A DNA stretch of 64,000 bases. Source: a virus. The stretch spans positions 37,417 to 101,416 of the IMG/VR virus record IMGVR_UViG_3300032291_001290; one strand, given 5' to 3'. The notes below the pieces were generated by a model. It ran no database searches. It worked only from the letters and a program-made list of their open reading frames with translations, and was not told the DNA's origin. Below are positions 46,774 through 64,000 of this stretch, piece after piece. The position numbers were made by a program, and so were the translations under genes. The first letter of the stretch is position 1; the number at the start of each line of letters is the position of its first letter.

Positions 46774-49038
46774 ATGATAAACTCACCAGAAATCGAAAGC
46801 ATCATTGAACAAGCGATTGAATCTGCTAAAACTAGAAAACAACAGTACGTTACTGTTGAACATCTATTACTTGCATTAATTACATATCCCCCATTTAAAA
46901 AATGTGTGGGTGGTTTTGGTGCAGACATTGATACAATGGAACAAGAAATCACTGCATACTTAGATAGCTTACATGCTATTATTTCTGCAACTGATGAAGT
47001 AGTGCCACGCAAAACAAATAGCCTTGAACGTGTTATTAATCGTAGTGTTACGCAAGTATTGTTCACCGGTCGCAGACAAGTAACTACGATTGATTTATAT
47101 CTAAGTATTGCCGCAGAAGGTAATAGCCATGCACATTACTTTCTACTAAAATACGGTATTAATAAAAATGAATTTGTTACATACTGGCAAAAACATTATA
47201 AAGGTGGTGAACATAATTCACATCTTAGCGAAAATCAAGCTGATGAAATATTAGAAGAATACACCATCAACTTATCGCAACTTGCTGAACAAGGTAAACT
47301 TGAACCATTGATTGGTCGTAGCAAAGAACTTGATGATATTGTCAACGTACTAGCTAAACGATTTAAAGCAAACGTATTGATGGTGGGTGACCCGGGTGTT
47401 GGTAAAACTGCTATTGCAGAAGGTCTTGCTAGCTTAATTCAGAATGGTGATGCACCTGAGTTCCTTAAGGATCATGCTGTCTATAGTTTGGAAGTAGGCT
47501 CACTACTTGCAGGAAGTAAATATCGAGGTGACTTTGAGGAAAAAGTAAAAGCAGTATTGGATGCATTGAATACTAAAAAGAAAGCAATTCTTTTCATTGA
47601 CGAAGCACATACTATGCAGGGTGCAGGTTCAGCAAACAATGGTAGTGTTGACTTTGCTAACATGATTAAACCTGCTATCACTAAAGGTACACTAAAGGTT
47701 ATTGCAAGCACGACTTGGGAAGAGTACTACGAAAGTTTTGAGAAGGATCGTGCCTTGATGCGTAGGTTCTATCGTGTAGCAATTGATGAACCCTCCCCTG
47801 ATTCAACTATTAGAATTCTTTCAGGACTTAGTACACGGTTGAATGATTTCCATAGTGTTGAGATTACTGAGGATGCAATTAAAGCCGCAGTAGAATCATC
47901 AGTACGCTATATTCATGACCGCAAGAATCCCGACAAGAGTATTGACTTGCTTGATGCGGCTTGTGCTAAACAACGTGTTGCAGGCAATAAGGGTGCATTG
48001 ATTACTAAAGAACTTGTGTTTGACCAAGTTGAGAAGTTCACAGGTGTGCCGGCAGACAAGATGAAAGGTGATAACTTTGACCTTATCAATAACCTTGAAA
48101 TTAACATCAAAGGTAAATTGTATGGACAGGATGAAACTGTTCAGCAAGTATTGGAACGTATCTATGTTAACTTTGCTGGTATCGGCAATGATACTAAACC
48201 AACAGGTAGTTTCTTGTTCTTAGGTCCAACAGGTACAGGTAAAACAGAACTGGCTAAGTTGTTAAGTAAGAATCTTGACATGCCATTGCTCAAATATGAT
48301 ATGAGTGAATACAGTGAGAAACATTCAGTCTCAAGTTTGATCGGCCCTCCCCCTGGTTATGTTGGCTTTGGTGATAGTCAAGTTGGTGGTGGTCGTTTGA
48401 TTAGCGACTTGAGTAAGAACCCGCATGCTATCATGTTGTTTGACGAAGTTGAGAAAGCACACCCTGATATCTTTAACATCTTCCTACAGATGCTGGATGA
48501 AGGTCAGATTACAGGTAGTAACGGTAAGAAAGTTAATTGTAAAAATGCTATCATCATTATGACTAGTAATTTAGGCAGTTCTGACGGTGAACGCAATAAC
48601 ATTGGTTTTGGTTCACAAGAAAAACAGGGAGAAGATGATAAAGCATTAAAAGAATTCTTTAAACCTGAGTTTAGAAACCGTGTTGATTTGATTTGTAAAT
48701 TCAATAAACTTGACACACTTGCTATTAAGAAGATTGTAATTAAGTTTACTGATGACTTGAAAAAGAGCCTCATCGAAAAACATAACATTAGTCTTGCACT
48801 TACTGAACCCGTTATCAATTATTTGGCTGAGCAAGGATATGATAAAAAGATGGGCGCACGTCCACTATCACGCAAAATTGATGAATTAATTAGGGTACCG
48901 TTAAGTAAAAAAGTATTGTTTGAGCGAATCAAAAATAGTACAATTACTGTTATTATGAATGAAGATAAAGTTGATTTTACAGTTGCACAAAAACTCACAG
49001 CTAAGGTAAATGAAAATGGGATTATTGAAGTCAGTTGA
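46774..49038 (+). CDS. clpA: ClpA-like AAA+ chaperone
   Basis: Clp N-domain EHLLLAL, Walker A motifs GDPGVGKT and GPTGTGKTE, KYRGDFEE, PPGYVG, IGF loop, GARPL. Confidence 0.92.
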   Translation: MINSPEIESIIEQAIESAKTRKQQYVTVEHLLLALITYPPFKKCVGGFGADIDTMEQEITAYLDSLHAIISATDEVVPRKTNSLERVINRSVTQVLFTGRRQVTTIDLYLSIAAEGNSHAHYFLLKYGINKNEFVTYWQKHYKGGEHNSHLSENQADEILEEYTINLSQLAEQGKLEPLIGRSKELDDIVNVLAKRFKANVLMVGDPGVGKTAIAEGLASLIQNGDAPEFLKDHAVYSLEVGSLLAGSKYRGDFEEKVKAVLDALNTKKKAILFIDEAHTMQGAGSANNGSVDFANMIKPAITKGTLKVIASTTWEEYYESFEKDRALMRRFYRVAIDEPSPDSTIRILSGLSTRLNDFHSVEITEDAIKAAVESSVRYIHDRKNPDKSIDLLDAACAKQRVAGNKGALITKELVFDQVEKFTGVPADKMKGDNFDLINNLEINIKGKLYGQDETVQQVLERIYVNFAGIGNDTKPTGSFLFLGPTGTGKTELAKLLSKNLDMPLLKYDMSEYSEKHSVSSLIGPPPGYVGFGDSQVGGGRLISDLSKNPHAIMLFDEVEKAHPDIFNIFLQMLDEGQITGSNGKKVNCKNAIIIMTSNLGSSDGERNNIGFGSQEKQGEDDKALKEFFKPEFRNRVDLICKFNKLDTLAIKKIVIKFTDDLKKSLIEKHNISLALTEPVINYLAEQGYDKKMGARPLSRKIDELIRVPLSKKVLFERIKNSTITVIMNEDKVDFTVAQKLTAKVNENGIIEVS

Positions 49039-50298: not shown

Positions 50299-53200
50299 AT
50301 GAAAATAGCCGCACTACTTGAAAGCCGTAAATGCCTACTTGAAGGCGGTAACCTATCTATTGGATCACAGCAAGCACAACAATTAGACCTAAAGGTTACA
50401 AATCGTAACTACATGGTTCCTAAATTAAATGAACTATTATATGCAATCAATCAGGCTTATGCTAAGATGTATAAGCAACCACTATGGAATCCAAAAGTAT
50501 TAGCAAGTGGTGAGTTCTTAAGTGGAAGTAGTTTACACTTCTTTAATGTTAAGGGTATTTCTGATGAAACTTTTGTTGCAAAGAAACCAACTGTTGGTGA
50601 CATTGATACAATGGTTGACAAAACAAAAGAAACTGATTTACAACAATTCTTAACTGCATACACAAATAAACAAATTGGTCCTGCTAAGTTTTTAGGCTTT
50701 CAACGTGGTAATGAACAGTTCTCAGGATTGTTTGAATTACAAGACCCACCGGTAAAGGTACAAATAGATTTTGAATTTGTAGAGTTTGAAAATGATTTGC
50801 CAACTGATTGGGCTAAATTTAGTCATAGTAGTTCATGGGAAGATTTGCAAGCAGGTGTTAAGGGTGTATTCCACAAGTGGCTGATTCAAGCATTCACTGC
50901 ATTAACACGTAAAGATTTTTTACTACGCAAAATGAAGGGCCGCGGTAAACTACGTCAAGAGGTTGATGAACCCATGACAGATAACATGTATAGTTTTGCT
51001 GTGTCTAGTAAAGAAGGTGGTGGATTACGTGCAAAGTACGAACCAGTTTTAGATGAAAATGGTAAGCCATTAGTAATCGATGGATTGCCCGTAATGCGTG
51101 AGGCACCTACTGCAGGCTACCAACAAAACATTGGACAGATTTTTTCAACAATCTTAGGACAACGTTTAAGTCCTAAACAAGCACAAGCATTACAAAAACA
51201 ATTCTGGTCGTTCACTGGCTTATTGAATGTCATGAATACATTGATGAGTCCAGAAGAAAAAGAACAAGTATTGAACGGATTCCTGCAAAAGACAATTGGT
51301 CTCGGTGCTCAAGGAATGTACAAAAACAATCCTGATAAAGATATTGCCGAAAAGACTACTGCCATCAACACAATGCTTCAAACATTGAAGTTACCTAAGC
51401 CAGCTAATTTAGATAAAATGCTACAAGATTATCGTCAAGCATACAAGATGACTGGCACAGATGAAGGTGTTGAGACAAGAAAAAATATTGTCAAGAGTAT
51501 GGCTAAAAACACACTTGATGAGGCTGCACCGAGTTATAAACGCAAAGGTATTCAACACATATACAATCCTGGATCAAGTACTGAGATGAAGGATGTAGAC
51601 TTCATTAACTTTGCAAAAGAAATCGCACAAGACGGTGGCAAGTTTCAAGGCGTTCCAATCAACTTGAAAGTTGATGGTGCTGGTATTAGATTTGGTAAAA
51701 CACCTGAAGGTGAGCCATTCTTCATGACCAGTCGTGTTGACAAGCCCATGACAGCAGATAATATTGGTGATTTTGAAAATTACGGAAGAAGTCAAGGTCA
51801 AGGAGCAGAACAGTTAGCACGTACACAGAATTATGATAAAGCATTATCTACTATTGTTAATGCTGATTTTATGAAAGATATCCCATCTGATACTATTGTT
51901 CAGGCAGAGATGTTATTCAATCCAATGGCACAACAAGATGATGGTGGTTATAAATTTGTAAATATTCCATACGATCCTAAGAAATTGGGAAAGTCAATGA
52001 CTCTTGTTCCAATAAGTGTTAAGCAATATAGCACAGGGGAAACAAGACCTGATAGTCAAAAGATTAAGCAAGCATTAATCAAAGACAGCACACCTGACAT
52101 TAAAATGATAAACAATACTCTATCACATAAGGGTATTGATGTTAGTAAAATCATTAATCCAATTATTAAAAATGCCGAGACACTTACAAACGCTGTAGGA
52201 CAAAGGGGAGATACTCCTGACAAACAAAAAGCAAAAACTATATTAAGTAAAGCAAGACAAGCATTAAGCAGTGCTATTATTAGTAGCCCCATTGCAGGAA
52301 AAGATCAATTGGGTGATATGATTGAAGGTCTTGTTATCAATATGCCAAGTGGTACGCTTGCAAAAGTTACTAGCCCTGATATGCAAAACAAGATGGCTGC
52401 AAAGCAAGCTATGAATAAGAAACCAACAGAAGGTAGTAATCGTGTTAAACCTGCTGTAGTTACAATTGGTAGTTTTGTAGGACATAAAGGTCATCAACAA
52501 TTAATTCAACAAACGATTGATACTGCTAAAAGTGTAGGTGGTGATCCTTATATCTATGTTAGTCCTGTAATGGGACCAGATGATCCTATTCCACCAGCAG
52601 ATAAAGTTAAAACATTACAAGCATTGTATCCACAATACGCAAACAATATTCAAGTTTGGAATCCTCAAGGTACTCCAATGAAGAAGATTGAGAAAGAACT
52701 TGTTATTCCAGCAAATAGTCCATACAACAAAGTCATCTTATTAGTGGGTGATGACCGTTATGAAGGTATGAAAAACTGGATGAATAGTTTAGAAAAGCGC
52801 ATGAAAGATCCAGCAGCCGTTGCTAAGTATGGCGGCACACAAAATCAAGTTGACTTTGAAACAGTTAGAACAGAACGTGATCCAACTAAAGGTGGTACTG
52901 GTATTAGTTTTACACAACTACGTAACAAACTAAAAGATTCCAATGCAAGTGAACAGGACAAATTGAACTATTGGATGCAAGCATTCGACGGTGAAACCTT
53001 GGGAGCAAATTGGATTAAACATCTTATGGACGTAACAGCAAAGAACATGGGTATCCAGCAACAACAAGCTATTAAAGAATATGTTGAGAGAGTTAAAGTA
53101 TTGTTGCCACACGCTACTCCTGAACAAAAAGCTAAAATTTACGAATCATTAGTTAGAGCAAAAGCTAAGTTGGATGAAGGCAAGAAAAAGAAAAAGAAAA

Positions 53201-54474
53201 AATCTTCAAAATCACTGAGAGGTTATTTCTTCCCGGGTTATGCCTATTATGGTGGCGGAGAATCTGGTGAAGGTGGTGGCGGAGACGGCGGTGGCGAAAG
53301 TATAAACCGTGGCATGTCGGAAGATGAATTCGAAGAGGGTATCGGTAAAGCATTGGGCACCGCAGCTTTAGCAGGTAGTCTAGCATTAGGTGGCTTATCA
53401 CAAATGGGTAAAACAACAGACACCAACTGGGATAAATTACCACAACAAATGAGTACTCAACAAGATACAACCGGTGATGAAAAGGTTATGTCTGTAACCG
53501 GACCTAACAATAAAGGTGAGTATCGTGTTAGAGTTACTACAGGTAATGATGTACAAGAATTTATTACTAAAACTCCACCAAAGAGTTTAGAAGAAGATAA
53601 AGAAACAGATCCTGTGACTAAAGCAGTAATAAGTTTTTACAAACCTGTAGTCAATAATATTCATAAAGAAAAAGTAGATAACTACGTTGACCAAGCACGT
53701 GACCTATTACAAAAAACAGATGATCCTAAAGTTCGTAGCAAGTTAATTGATATCTTTAAAAAAGGTAAAGAGAATCCATATATACAAGGTGGAATAGTTA
53801 CTACTATCGGTGCATTGTTAGCAGGTGGTGTATTAACCACTGCACAAAGAATGGGACTAAGTCCTTCACAAACTAACCTAGCACTACAGGCAATATTAAA
53901 CACTGTTATTCCTACTGTTGTTTCACGTATCAATGGTAAAAGCTGGAGTGATACTGTCAAGTATACATTGGCTAGTGCGGGTATAGGAACTGGCATTGCT
54001 GGTGCAGGTTTAATAGAAGCTGGAAACATTGAACGTAAAGAAAGTTTTCGAGGACGTACTACCCCGGATGTTGAATACATTGTAAAAGATGATAATGGAA
54101 ATATCGTAAGACATTGCAAGACTAAAAAAGAAGCCAAGCTATGGTATGATATGATTAATCTAAGTCAAGAAGAAATGTGGGCTAAGTATCCTCAATTAAA
54201 AGTTAATGAAGAATTAAACGAATTAATGAAAATGGGTGCTACTATTGAACCTATGGAAGAAAATATTCTAGGATTCATGACCAAATCTCCCGCAAAGAAA
54301 TCTTCTACTAAGGTAGATGACTTTACCGCTAAACTTATATCAAATAGACAAAAATCACAACCATCAACTAAAGAAAAAAGATATAGTGGATACGAAGAAT
54401 ATATAAAAGACAAAGAGTTAAATCCTCAGCAGGTCAATATGTCCGAAAGCCATGATTATTTAGAAGAAAAATAA
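50299..54474 (+). CDS. 1391-aa multidomain protein: pol-beta-like NTase + ligase-type adenylyltransferase + HIGH-family cytidylyltransferase-like + small modules
   Basis: SGSS...GDIDT (50596); LKVDG/QAEML/IEGLVI/LAKV ligase motifs (from 51667); HKGH (52483), VGDDR, ISFTQLR. Confidence 0.7.
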   Translation: MKIAALLESRKCLLEGGNLSIGSQQAQQLDLKVTNRNYMVPKLNELLYAINQAYAKMYKQPLWNPKVLASGEFLSGSSLHFFNVKGISDETFVAKKPTVGDIDTMVDKTKETDLQQFLTAYTNKQIGPAKFLGFQRGNEQFSGLFELQDPPVKVQIDFEFVEFENDLPTDWAKFSHSSSWEDLQAGVKGVFHKWLIQAFTALTRKDFLLRKMKGRGKLRQEVDEPMTDNMYSFAVSSKEGGGLRAKYEPVLDENGKPLVIDGLPVMREAPTAGYQQNIGQIFSTILGQRLSPKQAQALQKQFWSFTGLLNVMNTLMSPEEKEQVLNGFLQKTIGLGAQGMYKNNPDKDIAEKTTAINTMLQTLKLPKPANLDKMLQDYRQAYKMTGTDEGVETRKNIVKSMAKNTLDEAAPSYKRKGIQHIYNPGSSTEMKDVDFINFAKEIAQDGGKFQGVPINLKVDGAGIRFGKTPEGEPFFMTSRVDKPMTADNIGDFENYGRSQGQGAEQLARTQNYDKALSTIVNADFMKDIPSDTIVQAEMLFNPMAQQDDGGYKFVNIPYDPKKLGKSMTLVPISVKQYSTGETRPDSQKIKQALIKDSTPDIKMINNTLSHKGIDVSKIINPIIKNAETLTNAVGQRGDTPDKQKAKTILSKARQALSSAIISSPIAGKDQLGDMIEGLVINMPSGTLAKVTSPDMQNKMAAKQAMNKKPTEGSNRVKPAVVTIGSFVGHKGHQQLIQQTIDTAKSVGGDPYIYVSPVMGPDDPIPPADKVKTLQALYPQYANNIQVWNPQGTPMKKIEKELVIPANSPYNKVILLVGDDRYEGMKNWMNSLEKRMKDPAAVAKYGGTQNQVDFETVRTERDPTKGGTGISFTQLRNKLKDSNASEQDKLNYWMQAFDGETLGANWIKHLMDVTAKNMGIQQQQAIKEYVERVKVLLPHATPEQKAKIYESLVRAKAKLDEGKKKKKKKSSKSLRGYFFPGYAYYGGGESGEGGGGDGGGESINRGMSEDEFEEGIGKALGTAALAGSLALGGLSQMGKTTDTNWDKLPQQMSTQQDTTGDEKVMSVTGPNNKGEYRVRVTTGNDVQEFITKTPPKSLEEDKETDPVTKAVISFYKPVVNNIHKEKVDNYVDQARDLLQKTDDPKVRSKLIDIFKKGKENPYIQGGIVTTIGALLAGGVLTTAQRMGLSPSQTNLALQAILNTVIPTVVSRINGKSWSDTVKYTLASAGIGTGIAGAGLIEAGNIERKESFRGRTTPDVEYIVKDDNGNIVRHCKTKKEAKLWYDMINLSQEEMWAKYPQLKVNEELNELMKMGATIEPMEENILGFMTKSPAKKSSTKVDDFTAKLISNRQKSQPSTKEKRYSGYEEYIKDKELNPQQVNMSESHDYLEEK

Positions 54475-57225: not shown

Positions 57226-57280
57226 TAACTTTCCATATTATGGTATTTTGATAAATACTATATAACATTGGAATCACATT

Positions 57281-58084
57281 ATGCGTTTTACAGAAATATC
57301 AGAATCTACAGTAGCCGGCTCAATCTCAACCGTAGCAATGCCTATGATGGCTCAAGCCCGAGAAAGTGTTAAAGTTCCTGGACTAAAACCAGTTGAATAT
57401 TTGATGAAGGGTAAAGTCAAAAAGAAAGGTTCTTACGGTAATAGTATTGCAGAAAGCAAAGTTAATGAAGAAGACATTTCTGAACAAGACTTAATTATTG
57501 TTCCTGGTCAGGGTCGCACTAGTAAAACTGGTTTAATTAAACATGGCCAAAGTCGTTTAGACCATGAAGTAGAAATGGCACGTAGTGATTTATTCAGTGC
57601 CGCAAAAAATGCTAAAAAAGTATTTAACATGATTAAAGATGTTAGTGAAGAAGAAGGTCTTGAAGGCTGGGTACAAGAAAAGATTATTAAAGCCAATGAC
57701 TATCTAAACACTATCCGTGAATACTTAGAAGGAAAACAACTTCAAAGTGTGGCGGAAGTAACCGGAGATGAAAAATTTGATAAGATGATGACAACTATCA
57801 AACAGGGCACTAACAAACAAAAAACCGCAGATCGTAAAGAACAACAAAAACAAACCCAACAACGTGCCCGTGATGCTTTTGGCAATATGTTTGGTGGCGG
57901 CAATCCTGCTGATAAACTCAGTATCAGGAAAGGTGTAGCGGAAGGTGCAAAAGTTGATAGAATGGTAAAGCATGTCAAGTCTAGCGAAAAGAAACTTGGT
58001 CACTCAGATAAAGAAGCAGAGAACATTGCATGGGCAACAGCTAACAAGCGCGGTATGTTAGATAACAAGAATAAGAAAAAGTAA
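57281..58084 (+). CDS. Modular internal-head-like protein
   Basis: MRFTEISE start, DHEVEMARSDL...LEGWVQEKI module, two xVAE junctions. Confidence 0.7.
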   Translation: MRFTEISESTVAGSISTVAMPMMAQARESVKVPGLKPVEYLMKGKVKKKGSYGNSIAESKVNEEDISEQDLIIVPGQGRTSKTGLIKHGQSRLDHEVEMARSDLFSAAKNAKKVFNMIKDVSEEEGLEGWVQEKIIKANDYLNTIREYLEGKQLQSVAEVTGDEKFDKMMTTIKQGTNKQKTADRKEQQKQTQQRARDAFGNMFGGGNPADKLSIRKGVAEGAKVDRMVKHVKSSEKKLGHSDKEAENIAWATANKRGMLDNKNKKK

Positions 58085-61000
58085 TAACATGAGTAATATT
58101 TTAAAAGGTTTATTGAACGAAGCCAATCCATATCGCATAAGCGAACCAGAACGTGAGTATGGTGCGCCATTTCAATCTCGTCCAAGAATGGGACCACAAG
58201 AACCAGAAGATGTACCTGATGACTTACCACCACAAGATCCATTCAAACAAGACCCTGCTAAACTAGCAAAAGTAGAATATAGCAAAGATGAAGGTGAAGC
58301 ACCAAACGGCAAACGTTATAACACGGTTATGTCAATTAGTGGTCCTTCAAACGCAGTACGTAATGAAGTTGAGATGTTTAACAAACATCATTGGGGTGCA
58401 AAAAAGATTGTTGACATGAAAACAATTGAAGCAAAGACTCCAAATGGCCCTGCACAGTATACAGTATACATAGTTGACAATCACAAGTATGGCATGTGGA
58501 CTCCATTTAAAGGTGAAAAGCCAGTTGGTGAACCTTTAGTGTTCAAAGAAAGTCAAAATGGTATTAGTGCTAGTGATTTAGCTGACATACTTTATAATCG
58601 CTTAGAAATGCGATATCCTGATATTGTCTCACGTTACGGGCATGAAGTAGTAGGTGATACAATAATGGATGTAGCTGACTTTCATGCTGGCTCAGAAGAA
58701 TTAGGCACTAGTGATGTAAGTATAATGATTCGTCAAATATTGAAAAAATTAGAAAACTACAATGTTGACGAAAGTAAAGAACAAGATTACGGACCCGAAT
58801 ATCAAGCAATGGTAAATCGTGTAGGTCAATTAGCAAAACAAGGTGAGCGTAAAACTGTTTATGATCCTGTTAAGCGTGTGTATAAGACGGTGCCAGTTAA
58901 CCCACCTAAACAGCAAGGCATGGCGGAAGGATCCAATGACGATAATTTCACAATTAATGATATTCATCAACTAGAACAGATTAAAGATTTTGAAACTTTA
59001 AAAGCTAGAGCCAAATATTTAATCAAAGGTAAACCTGCAAGACGCATGAAGCCTGAAAAAATTGCATATTTTTATGACAGAGTAGACACATTAACATCAC
59101 CCATAAAAGTGATTAAAATGATGTATGACTTGTTATTAGCTGGTGAAGGTATGAAAACAATAGGTTCACAAAACAGTACTAATCCAAATGCATATCAAAA
59201 ACGTTTTACCGAAGAAGAACAAGGTGTGGCGGAAGCCCGTACTGACAAAAATCTAACTGAACCAACTTCCTACATACAAGTTAAACAACTTATCGATAAG
59301 ATGGATAAGGGTGGCAAAAATCGTATAGCAAAAGCATTAAGAAAAAATTTAGGTATCACTACACAAGATCAATTAGATGAAAAGTGGAGTCAAAAGTATA
59401 AGAGTAGCATAAATTGTTCACATCCAAAAGGCTTTAGTCAAAAGGCTCACTGTGCTGGTAAGAAAAAGCACAATGAAAGTATTGAGATGGAAATGGTCTG
59501 TGAAGATTGTGGAATGTGCGAGACACATGCCGACCATCAAAATCTAGACGAGGCATGTTGGAAAGGTTATCACAAAGAAGGTAACAAAAAAATGTTTGGC
59601 AAAACATACCCTAACTGCGTGAAGAATGAAGATATTGAAGAAGATAATTCTAGGATCGCAAGAAAACCAGGACAACCTGCTAATAGTAAAAAGCATAGCG
59701 ATTTATACACAGATGAAAATCCTAAAGGCACTATCACTGGTTTAAAATTTGCTACAGCAGAGGATGCTAGAGCCAGTGTATCAAAGATTCGTAACAGTAG
59801 TCGTAGTCACGCACATAAGATTCAAGCCGCTGTAGCAATGGAACAACGTGCTAAGGCTGCAGGAAAATCTGAGGCAGCGTCAGTATATAGAAAATATATA
59901 AATGCTACTAAAAAAACTGACGAGGGTATGGATTTAGAAGAAGCCTGTTGGGATACACATAAGCAAGTAGGTATGAAAAATAAAGGCGGCAAACAAGTTC
60001 CTAACTGTGTGCCTAAGGAAAGTGTGGCGGAAGGCAAAGTTATTAATACCTATCTTTGGCATGGGTCAAGACAAAAGATTCCTATGCTAGAGCCAAGACA
60101 ATCAGTTGATACAGGCGGTGCCGCAGGTAGCAATCAAAATGCTATCTATGCTACCAGTGATCCTAAAGTGGCAATAGCAGTTGGTGGATTGACTACTCCT
60201 GATTCAGATACCGCAATGTTTCCCAACGATCCGCAGATGGTTTTATTCAGTGGCAAAATAAGAAAAGGAGAAAATGTGTATCTGCACAAATTACCTTTCT
60301 ACGGCACAGACGGTAAACCGCAGTTTGTTCAAGGTGCCCATGACAGAGAATTTTATTCAATGCCCGGAGTAAAAGGCATCAAACCTGTAGAAATAAAAGC
60401 AGTTCCAGTAAACAAATATTTGAATTTAATCAGAAAAGCAACGCCAGCAGACTTAAAATTGCGTAAGAAGTATATGAAACAGCAAGGTGTGGCGGAAGGC
60501 TCCGATTCCAATCTATCATATCAAGGTAATTGCACAGAAGATGATGTTATTGAACATATTTTTGGTGATGTTAATAACTTTGCTAACATGGTTGAAGAAC
60601 ACGGTGACGAATTTACTGTTGGTGATTTAGTTGTCAAGTATGATCCAGAAACAGATGTTCATAGTTTCTACTATAAGAAGCAAGGTGTGGCGGAAGAACA
60701 ACATAGTTGCCCACACTGCGGTGGTGAGATGGTTAGTGAAGAACTAATGAACGAAAAGAAAGATGCTTGTTACTACAAAGTTAAGAGTCGTTATAAAGTA
60801 TGGCCTAGTGCTTACGCCAGTGGTGCATTAGTTAAGTGTCGCAAGAAAGGTGCCGCTAACTGGGGCAACAGCACCAAGAATGAAGATTCTATGGATCAAG
60901 TAGACGAGAGTTTGCATGATTGGTTTAATAAAGAAAAATGGGTTCGTATGGACACCAAAGGAAATATAAAAGGACCATGTGCAAGAGAACCAGGTGAAGG

Positions 61001-61563
61001 CAAACCAAAATGTCTTCCACAGAGCAAAGCACACAGTTTAGGTAAAAAGGGTCGTGCAAGTGCAGCCCAACGCAAACGTAGAGAAGATCCTAATCCTGAT
61101 CGTAGTGGTAAAGCTATCAATGTTAACACTAAGAAAAAGTCAAATGAAGGTGTGGCGGAAGATTCTAGTAACAATATCCCAACTATTGGGATCAATGTAA
61201 GAAGTGACGGTGACATTGATTATGCTAGTTTGATAGTTGACGGGAAAAAGAAATACGAATCTAGAAAAACTGACAGTCTTAGACCATACGTGGGTAAAAC
61301 AGTTGGAATTGTTAGAACTGGCAATGGCCCTGCAGTTGCGATTGGACAAGTGACTATAGGTGAACCCATAGTAGTAGATGCAGAAAAGTTCAATAGACTT
61401 AGAAAACAACATCTAGTCCCACAAGGTAGTAAATTCGATATTGATAGTGATGGTACAAAATATCTGTATCCAATGATTAATCCAGTACGCTGGGATAATG
61501 AAAAACCAATAAAAAGTAAGGGTATCGTTTCTAGAAAAATGCAAGAGCAAGGTGTGGCGGAAG
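57747..61563 (+). repeat. Dispersed in-frame direct repeat GTGTGGCGGAAG (x7 exact; consensus CAAGGTGTGGCGGAAG, QGVAE)
   Basis: Exact at 57747, 59224, 60022, 60487, 60685, 61150, 61552; variants at 57933 (GTGTAGCGGAAG), 58918 (GCATGGCGGAAG), 53312 (GCATGTCGGAAG). Confidence 0.95.
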
Positions 61564-61790
61564 AATTTGAATTAGCAGGTGTAGGTGTAGCATACGAACT
61601 AGGTCGCAAAGCATATAAGCAAGGTATGACAATCAGAGACAATCCTTATAGTGCTACAAAAGAAGCACGTAAGTATGATGAATGGGAAAAAGGTCTAGAA
61701 CGTGGCAAACACGATGCAAATGATGCTAGACAATTCCGTAACAGTATAAAAGAAACTAAGAGTAACATTCTAAAAGGTTTAATGGGATGA
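58089..61790 (+). CDS. 1233-aa modular polyprotein (ART-like, ASCH, RMF-like, Cys-rich and other modules)
   Basis: Unrelated domains separated by QGVAE-type repeats and [LVI]xE sites. Confidence 0.75.
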   Translation: MSNILKGLLNEANPYRISEPEREYGAPFQSRPRMGPQEPEDVPDDLPPQDPFKQDPAKLAKVEYSKDEGEAPNGKRYNTVMSISGPSNAVRNEVEMFNKHHWGAKKIVDMKTIEAKTPNGPAQYTVYIVDNHKYGMWTPFKGEKPVGEPLVFKESQNGISASDLADILYNRLEMRYPDIVSRYGHEVVGDTIMDVADFHAGSEELGTSDVSIMIRQILKKLENYNVDESKEQDYGPEYQAMVNRVGQLAKQGERKTVYDPVKRVYKTVPVNPPKQQGMAEGSNDDNFTINDIHQLEQIKDFETLKARAKYLIKGKPARRMKPEKIAYFYDRVDTLTSPIKVIKMMYDLLLAGEGMKTIGSQNSTNPNAYQKRFTEEEQGVAEARTDKNLTEPTSYIQVKQLIDKMDKGGKNRIAKALRKNLGITTQDQLDEKWSQKYKSSINCSHPKGFSQKAHCAGKKKHNESIEMEMVCEDCGMCETHADHQNLDEACWKGYHKEGNKKMFGKTYPNCVKNEDIEEDNSRIARKPGQPANSKKHSDLYTDENPKGTITGLKFATAEDARASVSKIRNSSRSHAHKIQAAVAMEQRAKAAGKSEAASVYRKYINATKKTDEGMDLEEACWDTHKQVGMKNKGGKQVPNCVPKESVAEGKVINTYLWHGSRQKIPMLEPRQSVDTGGAAGSNQNAIYATSDPKVAIAVGGLTTPDSDTAMFPNDPQMVLFSGKIRKGENVYLHKLPFYGTDGKPQFVQGAHDREFYSMPGVKGIKPVEIKAVPVNKYLNLIRKATPADLKLRKKYMKQQGVAEGSDSNLSYQGNCTEDDVIEHIFGDVNNFANMVEEHGDEFTVGDLVVKYDPETDVHSFYYKKQGVAEEQHSCPHCGGEMVSEELMNEKKDACYYKVKSRYKVWPSAYASGALVKCRKKGAANWGNSTKNEDSMDQVDESLHDWFNKEKWVRMDTKGNIKGPCAREPGEGKPKCLPQSKAHSLGKKGRASAAQRKRREDPNPDRSGKAINVNTKKKSNEGVAEDSSNNIPTIGINVRSDGDIDYASLIVDGKKKYESRKTDSLRPYVGKTVGIVRTGNGPAVAIGQVTIGEPIVVDAEKFNRLRKQHLVPQGSKFDIDSDGTKYLYPMINPVRWDNEKPIKSKGIVSRKMQEQGVAEEFELAGVGVAYELGRKAYKQGMTIRDNPYSATKEARKYDEWEKGLERGKHDANDARQFRNSIKETKSNILKGLMG

Positions 61791-62902: not shown

Positions 62903-63343
62903 ATGTTATCAGATAATTTAAAAGTACTATTAGCTAGTACACAATCTTTTGCAATCAAATCGCAAAACTTTCACTGGAATATTGAAGGTAGTAACTTCCC
63001 ACAATATCACGAATTCTTTAATACATTATATGAAGATGTAAATGCTACAATTGATCCAATCGCTGAGTATATTAGAATCTTAGGTTCTTATACTCCAGGA
63101 AGTTTAACAAGATATGCAGAACTATCAATTATTCAAGACCAAATTAAAATTCCACGTGCCCAACTAATGTTTGCTGAATCACTTAAAGATTGCGAAATGA
63201 TGAGTGAATTAGTTGTTGCTATGTTTGATGAAGCAACCGAAGAACGTCAACAAGGCATTGCTAATTACATGGCTGAACTACAAGACCTATATGGCAAGAA
63301 AGCATGGTTCATTCGTTCCACTCTTAAGACAGAACGTGAGTAA
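62903..63343 (+). CDS. dps: Dps/ferritin-like DNA protection protein
   Basis: KSQNFHWNIEG..F..YH.FF..LY...ID.IAE.IR.LG, K.AW Dps signatures. Confidence 0.9.
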   Translation: MLSDNLKVLLASTQSFAIKSQNFHWNIEGSNFPQYHEFFNTLYEDVNATIDPIAEYIRILGSYTPGSLTRYAELSIIQDQIKIPRAQLMFAESLKDCEMMSELVVAMFDEATEERQQGIANYMAELQDLYGKKAWFIRSTLKTERE

Positions 63344-64000
63344 TGAGAGCAATTGAGTTTATTACAGAAGTTTTTGAGCCCGGTAAAACTAACTGGAAGT
63401 GGCGTCACCGCGGCAGTGAAGAAGCTACTGCTGAATTTACCGTAGGTGATAGAACATATCAATGGCATGCATACTCATACGTTCGTGCAGGCAATCCTAC
63501 TAAGTGGGAAATGCAATTTCGTTTAATTAGAACTCCAAATGACCCTGATGATTTAGACTTGTTTGGTACTACTGGCACAGGCAATGCGGCAGAAGTATTA
63601 TCAACAGCAGTTGATATCACCCGCGCATTCTTACAAGAGTATGGACTTGATAAAGTAGAAGAAATTACATTTAATGCAAAAGAAAACAGTCGCATAGCAT
63701 TGTATGCTAAGATGATTAAGCGTTTATTACCTGATTGGGATTTATATCAAAAATATAGTATAGATAACGGCATGGAGTATCACTTAACTGACCGTAGAGC
63801 ATACGACAAGCCTGAAAATAAAATTGCAGAAGAAATTACCGATGAGATGGCTCTCAAACAATTCACTCCAATGGGTGACTTTAACAAACCAGGGCCATTC
63901 AGAGGGGTTGACAAACGTTTAATTCCCCATCCGACTAATCAACTAAAGACACAACGGTTCTTTGAAAAAACTCCCTACGATTTTAGATTGTTCTTTAGTA
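63343..64000 (+). CDS. Modular internal-head-like protein, 3' truncated (not in ORF track)
   Basis: MRAIEFITE...TGTGNAAEVLST...ITFNAKENSRIALY...KIAEE...; open to window end; TAATG coupling with dps. Confidence 0.75.
   Translation, partial: MRAIEFITEVFEPGKTNWKWRHRGSEEATAEFTVGDRTYQWHAYSYVRAGNPTKWEMQFRLIRTPNDPDDLDLFGTTGTGNAAEVLSTAVDITRAFLQEYGLDKVEEITFNAKENSRIALYAKMIKRLLPDWDLYQKYSIDNGMEYHLTDRRAYDKPENKIAEEITDEMALKQFTPMGDFNKPGPFRGVDKRLIPHPTNQLKTQRFFEKTPYDFRLFFS

Follow-up and report, generated by a model that had tools for sequence, protein, structure and literature searches.

A repeated in-frame linker between unrelated modules of phage polyprotein genes, a probable dual-use junction in an uncultured T4-related jumbo myophage clade

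Two adjacent genes and their linkers

The window, a stretch of 64,000 nucleotides from a 101-kb contig of an uncultured phage, contains two neighbouring forward-strand genes, ORF A and ORF B, both of which are interrupted by copies of a short element, hereafter the linker. The features of this two-gene unit are as follows.

57249 to 57257, + strand: TGATAAATA motif upstream of ORF A, probable late promoter of the two-gene unit
57281 to 58084, + strand: ORF A, 267 amino acids, with the leader MRFTEISE and two linkers
57743 to 57759, + strand: linker 1, Q-S-V-A-E, AGT GTG GCG GAA
57929 to 57945, + strand: linker 2, a variant, K-G-V-A-E, GGT GTA GCG GAA
58089 to 61790, + strand: ORF B, a polyprotein of 1233 amino acids with eight modules, seven linkers and the leader MSNILKGLLNE
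58914 to 58930, + strand: linker 3, a variant, Q-G-M-A-E, GGC ATG GCG GAA
59220 to 59236, + strand: linker 4, Q-G-V-A-E
60018 to 60034, + strand: linker 5, E-S-V-A-E
60033 to 60497, + strand: module B4, 155 amino acids, LWHGS...YATS motifs, the most widely shared cassette
60483 to 60499, + strand: linker 6, Q-G-V-A-E, exact 17-mer consensus
60681 to 60697, + strand: linker 7, Q-G-V-A-E
60696 to 61160, + strand: module B6, 155 amino acids, Cys-rich and DUF5872-like, PHROG 727
61146 to 61162, + strand: linker 8, E-G-V-A-E
61161 to 61562, + strand: module B7, 134 amino acids, ASCH-like
61548 to 61564, + strand: linker 9, Q-G-V-A-E
61563 to 61790, + strand: module B8, 75 amino acids, C-terminal, ending in a copy of the ORF B leader (SNILKGLMG)

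The initial annotation reported seven forward-strand copies of the 12-mer GTGTGGCGGAAG, and an exact match count agrees at every position (57747, 59224, 60022, 60487, 60685, 61150 and 61552), against none expected and none matched in 100 dinucleotide-preserving shuffles; the genome-wide count that it proposed found no copy elsewhere in the contig. A search for the 17-mer CAAGGTGTGGCGGAAGG with up to three mismatches returned nine copies, all on the + strand and all within 57743-61564 (0.09 expected), including the two variants already suspected at 57933 (GTA GCG) and 58918 (G-M-A-E). A third suspected variant, at 53312, was dropped as unconvincing, since it differs from the 17-mer at six positions when counted by hand and lies outside the three-mismatch search. 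The element, of about 17-21 nt, has the consensus AAG CAA GGT GTG GCG GAA GGC (K-Q-G-V-A-E-G) and is confined to the two ORFs as direct, non-palindromic repeats, every copy being read, as had been claimed, in the single frame that gives G/S-V/M-A-E preceded by Q, K or E. ORF A additionally contains an S-I-A-E site with ordinary codons at 57443-57454.

The modules between linkers are indeed unrelated, since they fall into separate similarity clusters and different PHROGs, and ORF B, with eight of them, has the domain make-up of a phage polyvalent protein (2-15 unrelated domains in variable architectures). Pfam searches of the array yielded only sub-threshold matches, to DUF5872 for B6 (E=3.5e-4, under the curated cut-off) and to ASCH for B7 (E=1.7e-3, under cut-off). 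Module B4, which has 41 relatives at 60-94% amino acid identity, is ADP-ribosyltransferase-like by motif; this assignment is unconfirmed, the AlphaFold model having a mean pLDDT of 57 and searches giving no PDB sequence match, no Pfam family and, in the Atlas, unnamed clusters only. The N- and C-terminal modules of ORF A have homologues in three related contigs (L042, L071 and L160). The leader copy in B8 coincides with a 25-nt direct repeat (58091-58115 and 61760-61784, 88% identical).

Linker conservation and module exchange

Relatives were gathered by protein similarity, without using the motif for retrieval. On the contig, GTG accounts for 10.6% of Val codons and GCG for 6.5% of Ala codons, and all eight other VAE tripeptides use GTA or GTT with GCA or GCT, as first noted. 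Among the relatives, 61 of 90 GVAE sites are exactly GGT GTG GCG GAA (GGTGTGGCGGAA), compared with 0.29 predicted from codon usage of the same ORFs (nominal binomial P = 1e-129, which assumes independent sites). A nucleotide logo of 68 distinct sites displays a 21-nt consensus, with conserved silent bases G, A, T, G, G, A and C, that drops to background level on either side. By both the codon test and the logo, the proposal that conservation extends to the DNA beyond what the peptide requires holds across the clade. Within modules, codons at identical residues are the same in only 43-79% of comparisons between the window and its relatives.

In near-complete genomes the motif is restricted to one or a few loci each, which rules out a genome-wide signal. 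Scanning 596 Gb of prokaryote genome sequence with a 20-mer produced five hits, comprising a small linker-family contig binned in a Bacteroidetes MAG (L179, two in-frame copies), three chance occurrences of KQGVAEG in cellular-looking proteins and one occurrence out of frame; because the hits are of this kind, the motif is specific to the phage clade and is no host signal such as Chi.

Comparison of related contigs, set beforehand as the test of the shuffling claim, came out in its favour, with module content and order differing and breakpoints falling on the repeat. Across three close contig pairs, five of six breakpoints of module gain, loss or replacement lie on a linker at base resolution. 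L134 and L135 differ by one module, situated between two linker copies, while their flanks are 93% and 100% identical; between L160 and L162, two modules are replaced by three, or vice versa, with both breakpoints on linkers; and the 99.3% identity of L009 and L075 stops within a linker. Similarly, blastn matches of B4, B6, B7 and B8 end at linkers, those of B4 at both linkers in about 40 loci. The B7 matches in L023 and L160, at 91% nucleotide identity, run from linker to linker, the homologues of B6 are linker-bounded in five contigs (L160, L162, L103, L070 and L077), and those of B8 in L031 and L094 begin at a linker. In L160, the B7 homologue lies upstream of the B6 homologue, an order swapped relative to the window.

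In multi-linker ORFs, 27.5% of match ends fall within 12 nt of a linker, versus 4.3% of random positions; about two thirds lie away from any linker, and some module junctions have none. Across 17 architectures, module B4 has 14 distinct neighbours on its left and 15 on its right, and 173 distinct architectures occur among 192 linker-bearing ORFs. Modules have spread horizontally among these phages, B4 being 87% identical to its copy in G001 and tail sheath identity between linker-bearing genomes being only 41-59%.

The junctions bear the marks of ordinary homologous recombination at short direct repeats, with one copy left behind. A UvsX/RecA-like gene is located upstream of the window on the same contig and is also found in relatives. 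For homologous recombination to be efficient, 17-21 nt is a short length. Breakpoints at linkers would be expected, too, if selection merely retained recombinants that preserve domains, so these comparisons do not separate cause from effect between DNA identity and exchange.

Peptide constraint and the probable role of the linker

The peptide is constrained as well. One-mismatch linker variants comprise 17 synonymous and 6 non-synonymous changes, against a neutral ratio of 10:26 (P=6e-6), and the Glu is invariant among them. Two relatives of 98-99% completeness with the same linker arrays (G001 and G003) encode Peptidase_S77 (PF03420) above the curated cut-off, and G001 additionally encodes a Gp23 capsid protein and a T4-type portal (Portal_T4). 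The scaffold and capsid propeptides of G001 and G003 have [LI]-A-E sites in ordinary codons. The contig that holds the window, at a completeness of only 29%, yielded no prohead protease. Proteases of the T4 family cleave behind Glu, and T4 Alt undergoes cleavage at both of its ends (PMC5694885). In many linker-bearing proteins, the N-terminal leader is similar to MKTYQEFIAE, the capsid-targeting sequence of T4 (PMC8442874), a likeness of sequence only. Such leaders include MRANEFIVE-GVAE (L129) and MRATEFIIE-GVAE in relatives, with the leader directly abutting the linker in L129 and L134, as well as three MRAxEFIxE leaders on the contig itself; the ORF B leader MSNILKGLLNE bears a weaker likeness. 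The TGATAAATA motif, which resembles the T4 late promoter TATAAATA, occurs nine times in the window against 1.9 expected, each time just upstream of an ORF start; tail-fibre and virion structural genes are among the ORFs concerned. Cleavage of the linker by a gp21-type prohead protease and a virion location for these proteins are plausible predictions.

Taken together, the linker is probably a dual-use junction in cargo polyproteins of an uncultured T4-related jumbo myophage clade, serving as an in-frame recombination handle and as a probable prohead-protease site. Because unrelated modules have no other stretch of identity in common, and the frame of the linker never varies, it is a place where general homologous recombination can cross over. 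Crossover within one genome or between co-infecting phages would then delete, insert, replace or reorder whole modules in frame, and repeated exchange would in turn keep the linker copies alike, silent positions included, so that recombination may be what maintains their conservation. The polyproteins would be made late and taken into the prohead by the short leader at their N-terminus; the [V/I/L]-x-Glu sequence of the linker agrees with the cleavage rule of the T4 gp21-type protease encoded by relatives, and a cut after each VAE would release small individual proteins to accompany the DNA.

The strongest of the alternatives, though unlikely, keeps the linker as a recombination handle and spacer only, in a polyvalent protein that stays uncut or is cut by another protease, with VAE retained for its linker properties. 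In its favour, cleavage is a prediction from sequence and the core head proteins of relatives carry L/I-A-E instead of V-A-E; polyvalent proteins, moreover, can enter unprocessed, as do N4 vRNAP and ArdC (PMC5512222). A mere spacer is harder to reconcile with the purifying selection on the peptide, the Glu that never changes, the MRAxEFIxE-GVAE adjacency of leader and linker, and the existence of a gp21-family protease in the clade. Modules that stand alone also keep a linker at their end, with 2-5 residues after it, which would be strange in a mere spacer.

It is improbable that the silent sites are instead held by RNA or translation, through a ribosome pause at an SD-like AGGUG and the rare codons GUG and GCG that lets modules fold, with exchange as a by-product. 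GTG and GCG are rare in these genomes, and the AGGUG of the motif is complementary to the 3' tail of 16S rRNA, which counts for such a pause. The same bases, however, are retained in contigs spanning 33-49% GC, and the conserved silent positions spell a specific sequence, more than rare codons would need. RNA folding of seven copies with their flanks disclosed no common fold (five of seven z-scores were positive, with one outlier at -3.05), no start codon follows the motif, and a pause would not account for the stop of sequence identity right at the linker in recombinant pairs.

A dedicated enzyme has been considered in two forms. In one, improbable, a phage enzyme would nick or cut the 17-21-nt site and drive high-rate exchange between co-infecting phages, with the cassettes still freed by the head protease; in the other, more improbable again, a nickase, homing-type endonuclease or site-specific recombinase would recognise the linker DNA, which is the literal meaning of the integron-like array first suggested. 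A sharply bounded site of 17-21 nt is as long as the targets of nucleases or recombinases, and its presence at only one or a few places in each genome would suit such an enzyme. Nevertheless, no site-specific recombinase or comparable gene was recognised in the ORFs adjoining the array, the site is neither palindromic nor folded, the junctions resemble simple direct-repeat crossovers leaving one copy, and general recombination genes are present. Integrons are defined by a tyrosine-recombinase integrase and a folded attC; the neighbouring ORFs here contain no recombinase and the repeats are direct, without an attC-like fold, so the integron comparison survives only as an analogy.

Finally, the notion that the linkers are identical merely as recent copies of one ancestor, spread by duplication within one gene and free of constraint or role, is already contradicted by 61 exact copies where 0.29 were expected, by bases kept between genomes whose tail sheaths have diverged to 41-59% identity, and by largely randomised silent sites in the modules that the linkers flank, and is hardly credible.

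Related modular systems and significance

A close parallel in nucleotide terms is offered by the "recer" interdomain sequences of the protein PAB and protein G family of Gram-positive bacteria, in which short conserved border nucleotides reportedly promote in-frame, intron-free module shuffling. Conserved border nucleotides with recombinant breakpoints upon them are likewise found here (logo, codon test and three pairs). Recer sequences differ in belonging to bacterial surface proteins with far fewer modules, no proposed protease-site role and no clade-wide cassette pool.

At the protein level, the T4 internal proteins IPI, IPII, IPIII and Alt have an M-K/R-x-x-E-F-I-x-E leader, which leaders of this clade resemble, and are cut after [L/I/V]-x-Glu by a gp21-family protease, as is predicted here. 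The products of the hypervariable T4 IP locus are also alike in being diverse, fast-changing small proteins that have only a targeting and cutting signal in common (PMC3012670, citing Repoila 1994). In T4, by contrast, they are separate genes with one site each, whereas here an ORF holds up to eight unrelated modules, between which lies a repeated site with its silent positions fixed as well; for this clade, packaging and cleavage are predictions from sequence.

Efficient general phage recombination and modular shuffling across a phage population are also features of the gp37/gp38 adhesins of T4-type phages, which recombine at conserved His-box and glycine-rich motifs (PMC3157838), and of the promoter-stem-loop cassettes, or PeSLs (PMC2839356, PMC4122927). 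In the adhesins, the motifs belong to the structure of one domain, unlike the linker, which is interdomain, in frame and unfolded. PeSLs are intergenic regulatory elements with an early promoter and a stem-loop that move whole genes, whereas the linker is intra-ORF, translated and without a stem-loop.

Polyvalent proteins (Iyer et al. 2017, PMC5512222) likewise combine many unrelated effector-type domains per polypeptide in variable architectures; packaging and delivery with the DNA are predicted for them, and some are processed. That processing is assigned to embedded peptidase domains, and the terms "linker" and "shuffl" are absent from the text (PMC5512222). A Pfam search detected none of the polyvalent signature domains here (MuF, zincin-like MPTase, ParB-like and others).

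If the dual-use reading is correct, jumbo phages of a large lake clade draw on a common, quickly reshuffled stock of small proteins that accompany DNA, with a single seven-codon element acting as both crossover point and release site, a clear natural case of selection acting on one sequence as DNA and as protein together. Injected anti-host proteins could then vary faster than core genes diverge, as the contrast between B4, 87% identical, and the tail sheaths of the same genomes, 41-49% identical, would illustrate. The cargo of uncultured phages could be read from sequence by splitting at VAE, and a design rule is suggested for building and diversifying multi-cargo phage capsids.

The linker-bearing clade has no cultured member. 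Megablast of both ORFs against cultured phages gave no match, and the cultured phages with the most similar tail sheaths, PA5oct and Atu_ph07, contain zero GVAE[G/E/D/A] sites. A multi-module gene without GVAE linkers lies between terS and terL in S-SM2 and Bellamy, and module matches were obtained by tblastn in cyanomyophages.

Linker conservation at the DNA level

The sequence GTGTGGCGGAAG occurs seven times exactly in the window, on the + strand only and with no match in 100 shuffles, at the coordinates that the initial annotation had given for seven identical 12-mers. It is absent from the rest of the 101-kb contig, which is 29% complete by CheckV and of which the window is the final 64 kb (IMG/VR). 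Allowing up to three mismatches, the 17-mer CAAGGTGTGGCGGAAGG has nine copies against 0.09 expected, all within 57743-61564, and the same nine-copy family was recovered by a repeat finder; a variant formerly assigned to 53312 is too diverged to be counted and was discarded. Every copy translates as [Q/K/E]-[G/S]-[V/M]-A-E in the frame of its ORF.

Linker-bearing ORFs in the window
57281-58084, + strand: ORF A, 267 aa, adjacent to ORF B, with in-frame linkers
58089-61790, + strand: ORF B, 1233 aa, with in-frame linkers between modules B1-B8

Contig-wide, GTG accounts for 10.6% of Val codons and GCG for 6.5% of Ala codons, and the proposed contrast between the GTG-GCG of the linker and the codons of other VAE tripeptides was confirmed, all eight of the latter on the contig using GTA/GTT with GCA/GCT. 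ORF B carries at its two ends a 25-nt direct repeat (58091-58115 and 61760-61784, 88% identical), both arms of which encode SNILKGL, in the N-terminal leader and at the extreme C-terminus; this may be the footprint of fusion with, or excision beside, a following leader-bearing gene.

IMG/VR was scanned for AARGTGTGGCGGAAG, and among the matches listed at least 33 fetched loci (GC 36-49%) carry two to five copies, which with few exceptions read in frame as [QKE]GVAE[GEDA]. So that the motif did not itself select the sample, relatives were fetched with the protein of a single module (window 60033-60482), linkers left out, yielding 41 loci at 60-94% amino acid identity. Their 97 in-frame GVAE sites use GGT in 95, GTG in 81 and GCG in 90 cases. 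The exact GGTGTGGCGGAA is present in 61 of 90 sites from distinct ORFs, against 0.29 predicted from same-ORF codon usage, which upholds the claim of DNA-level conservation beyond what the peptide needs. Aligned as a nucleotide logo, 68 distinct sites yield the consensus AAG CAA GGT GTG GCG GAA GGC, with information content at background directly outside it on both flanks. Inside the module used for fetching, identical residues share a codon in just 43-51% of cases between the window and its most distant relatives, and tail sheath identity between the window and four large relatives is no more than 41-59%. Set against this drift, the exact linkers indicate that their silent positions are held, or continually reset, while the surroundings drifted, and by these comparisons the linker belongs to the clade as a whole, beyond this one genome.

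By gene content the phage is a jumbo myophage, encoding tail sheath, tail tube and virion proteins, and its closest cultured phages by tail sheath are Atu_ph07, Phosso and PA5oct (~45% identity). The linker was found neither in Atu_ph07 and PA5oct nor in the homologous multi-module protein of cyanomyophages. The latter (618-708 aa, between terS and terL; L169:3117-5243 in S-SM2, L170:3210-5066 in Bellamy) shares several small Cys-rich and DUF5872-like modules with the polyproteins, joined there by acidic or Lys-rich junctions in place of GVAE linkers.

Module exchange at the linker

When the window was compared with every fetched locus by blastn, matches ended at linkers for four modules.

Extents of blastn matches
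60014-60505: B4, in ~40 loci
60673-61164: B6, DUF5872-like
61147-61561: B7, ASCH-like
61546-61754: B8, C-terminal

Of the distinct match ends inside multi-linker ORFs, 27.5% fall no more than 12 nt from a linker, compared with 4.3% of random positions. When all linker-bearing ORFs were cut at linkers and the pieces clustered, B4 appeared in 17 architectures, with 14 distinct neighbours on its left and 15 on its right; certain modules were N-terminal in every case and others C-terminal in every case. In locus L160, the B7 homologue lies 5' of the B6 homologue, an order swapped relative to the window.

The strongest evidence for exchange comes from three closely related contig pairs. L134 has a single linker where L135 has two enclosing one additional module, with flanks 93% and 100% identical. 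L160 and L162, whose flanking modules are 95% and 91% identical, hold two and three modules respectively between two linkers, unrelated to each other. L009 and L075 share 99.3% identity as far as the linker and no relation beyond. Breakpoints in related contigs had been chosen beforehand as the check on which the proposal could fail, and in the three pairs five of six fall on the linker. In the printed alignments identity extends through CAAGGTGTGGCGGAAGG and ends just after, the signature expected of crossover between short direct repeats. Since B4 is 87% identical between the window and the near-complete relative G001, with tail sheaths at 41-49%, modules evidently pass between clade members that are only distant relatives. 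On these alignments, the reading of the linker as a recombination handle is well supported. A RecA/UvsX-like recombinase gene lies upstream of the window (G000:C1:15865-16629; Pfam match above cut-off) and also occurs in three large relatives.

The literal integron-like array first envisaged was abandoned, as no integrase was found next to the array and folding of linker copies gave no shared RNA structure or attC-like site; "integron-like" is valid only as an analogy. A genome-wide signal was rejected because the motif is limited to one or few loci in 345-354-kb relatives, and a host signal because prokaryote genomes totalling 596 Gb, searched with a 20-mer, returned one linker-family contig plus chance matches.

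Among the nearest known systems are the "recer" interdomain sequences of Gram-positive surface proteins, which reportedly promote intron-free module shuffling. Others are the internal proteins of T4, which combine CTS and gp21 and have a hypervariable locus (PMC3012670), T4 adhesin conserved-motif recombination and PeSL cassettes (PMC3157838, PMC2839356), and polyvalent proteins (PMC5512222). The linker, present up to seven times per ORF and common to the whole clade, unites features of these systems, as an in-frame recombination handle and at once a probable release site; no description of such a combined linker was found in the literature searched.

Peptide constraint and the predicted protease site

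Distinct one-mismatch linker variants in open frames comprise 17 synonymous and 6 non-synonymous changes, against a neutral expectation of 10:26 (P=6e-6), with Glu unchanged in all, indicating that the peptide is under constraint in addition to the DNA. In T4-family proteases the cut follows a Glu, and both ends of T4 Alt are trimmed (PMC5694885); the T4 capsid-targeting sequence MKTYQEFIAE is taken off by gp21 (PMC8442874). Near-complete array-bearing relatives encode a T4-type head module, with Gp23 capsid protein, Peptidase_S77 prohead protease and T4-type portal. The scaffold and capsid propeptide of G001 carry I-A-E and L-A-E sites in ordinary codons, so a protease site as such needs no GTG GCG.

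The leader M-[K/R]-x-x-[E/D]-F-[I/L]-x-E opens many linker-bearing ORFs, and in L129 and L134 it runs straight into the linker as MRANEFIVE-GVAE. From these sequences we infer cleavage at the linker and packaging of the polyproteins, and the reading as protease site and virion cargo is plausible.

Small proteins starting MRAKEFITE, MRATEFISE and MRAIEFITE occur at G000:C1:8464-9212, upstream of the window, and at window 63343-63999; this recurring leader closely resembles the T4 capsid-targeting sequence, making these small proteins candidate single-module internal proteins. A stand-alone B4 (L129:9946-10455) begins with a 13-aa leader and linker and ends with a linker plus just two residues (…QGVAE-DN-stop), a GVAEDN-stop end also seen in L076. 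The N-terminus of a 1391-aa protein (window 50299-54474), MKIAALLESRKCLLEG, is similar to the G001 major capsid protein start, MTQALLESRWGETKEALLEG, and the likeness may reflect a propeptide or targeting signal common to both. At window 46774-49038, a few kb 5' of the polyprotein genes, the phage encodes a double AAA+ unfoldase of the ClpA/ClpB type (Clp_N, AAA, AAA_2, ClpB_D2-small).

A late-promoter-like motif

The motif TGATAAATA has nine copies in the window against 1.9 expected, each a short way 5' of an ORF start.

Positions of TGATAAATA
745, 6983, 15067 (- strand), 17587, 26366, 49738, 55458, 57249, 62872

Genes downstream include tail-fibre and virion structural genes, the ferritin-like gene and the two polyprotein units, and this phage probably uses the motif as its late promoter. 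Its position 5' of structural genes and of the ORF at 57281 suggests that the latter is expressed late. The ferritin-like gene preceded by the motif lies at window 62903-63343 (Pfam E=7e-15), and a homologue (L160:3567-4024) sits 14 nt 3' of a polyprotein's DUF5872-like module.
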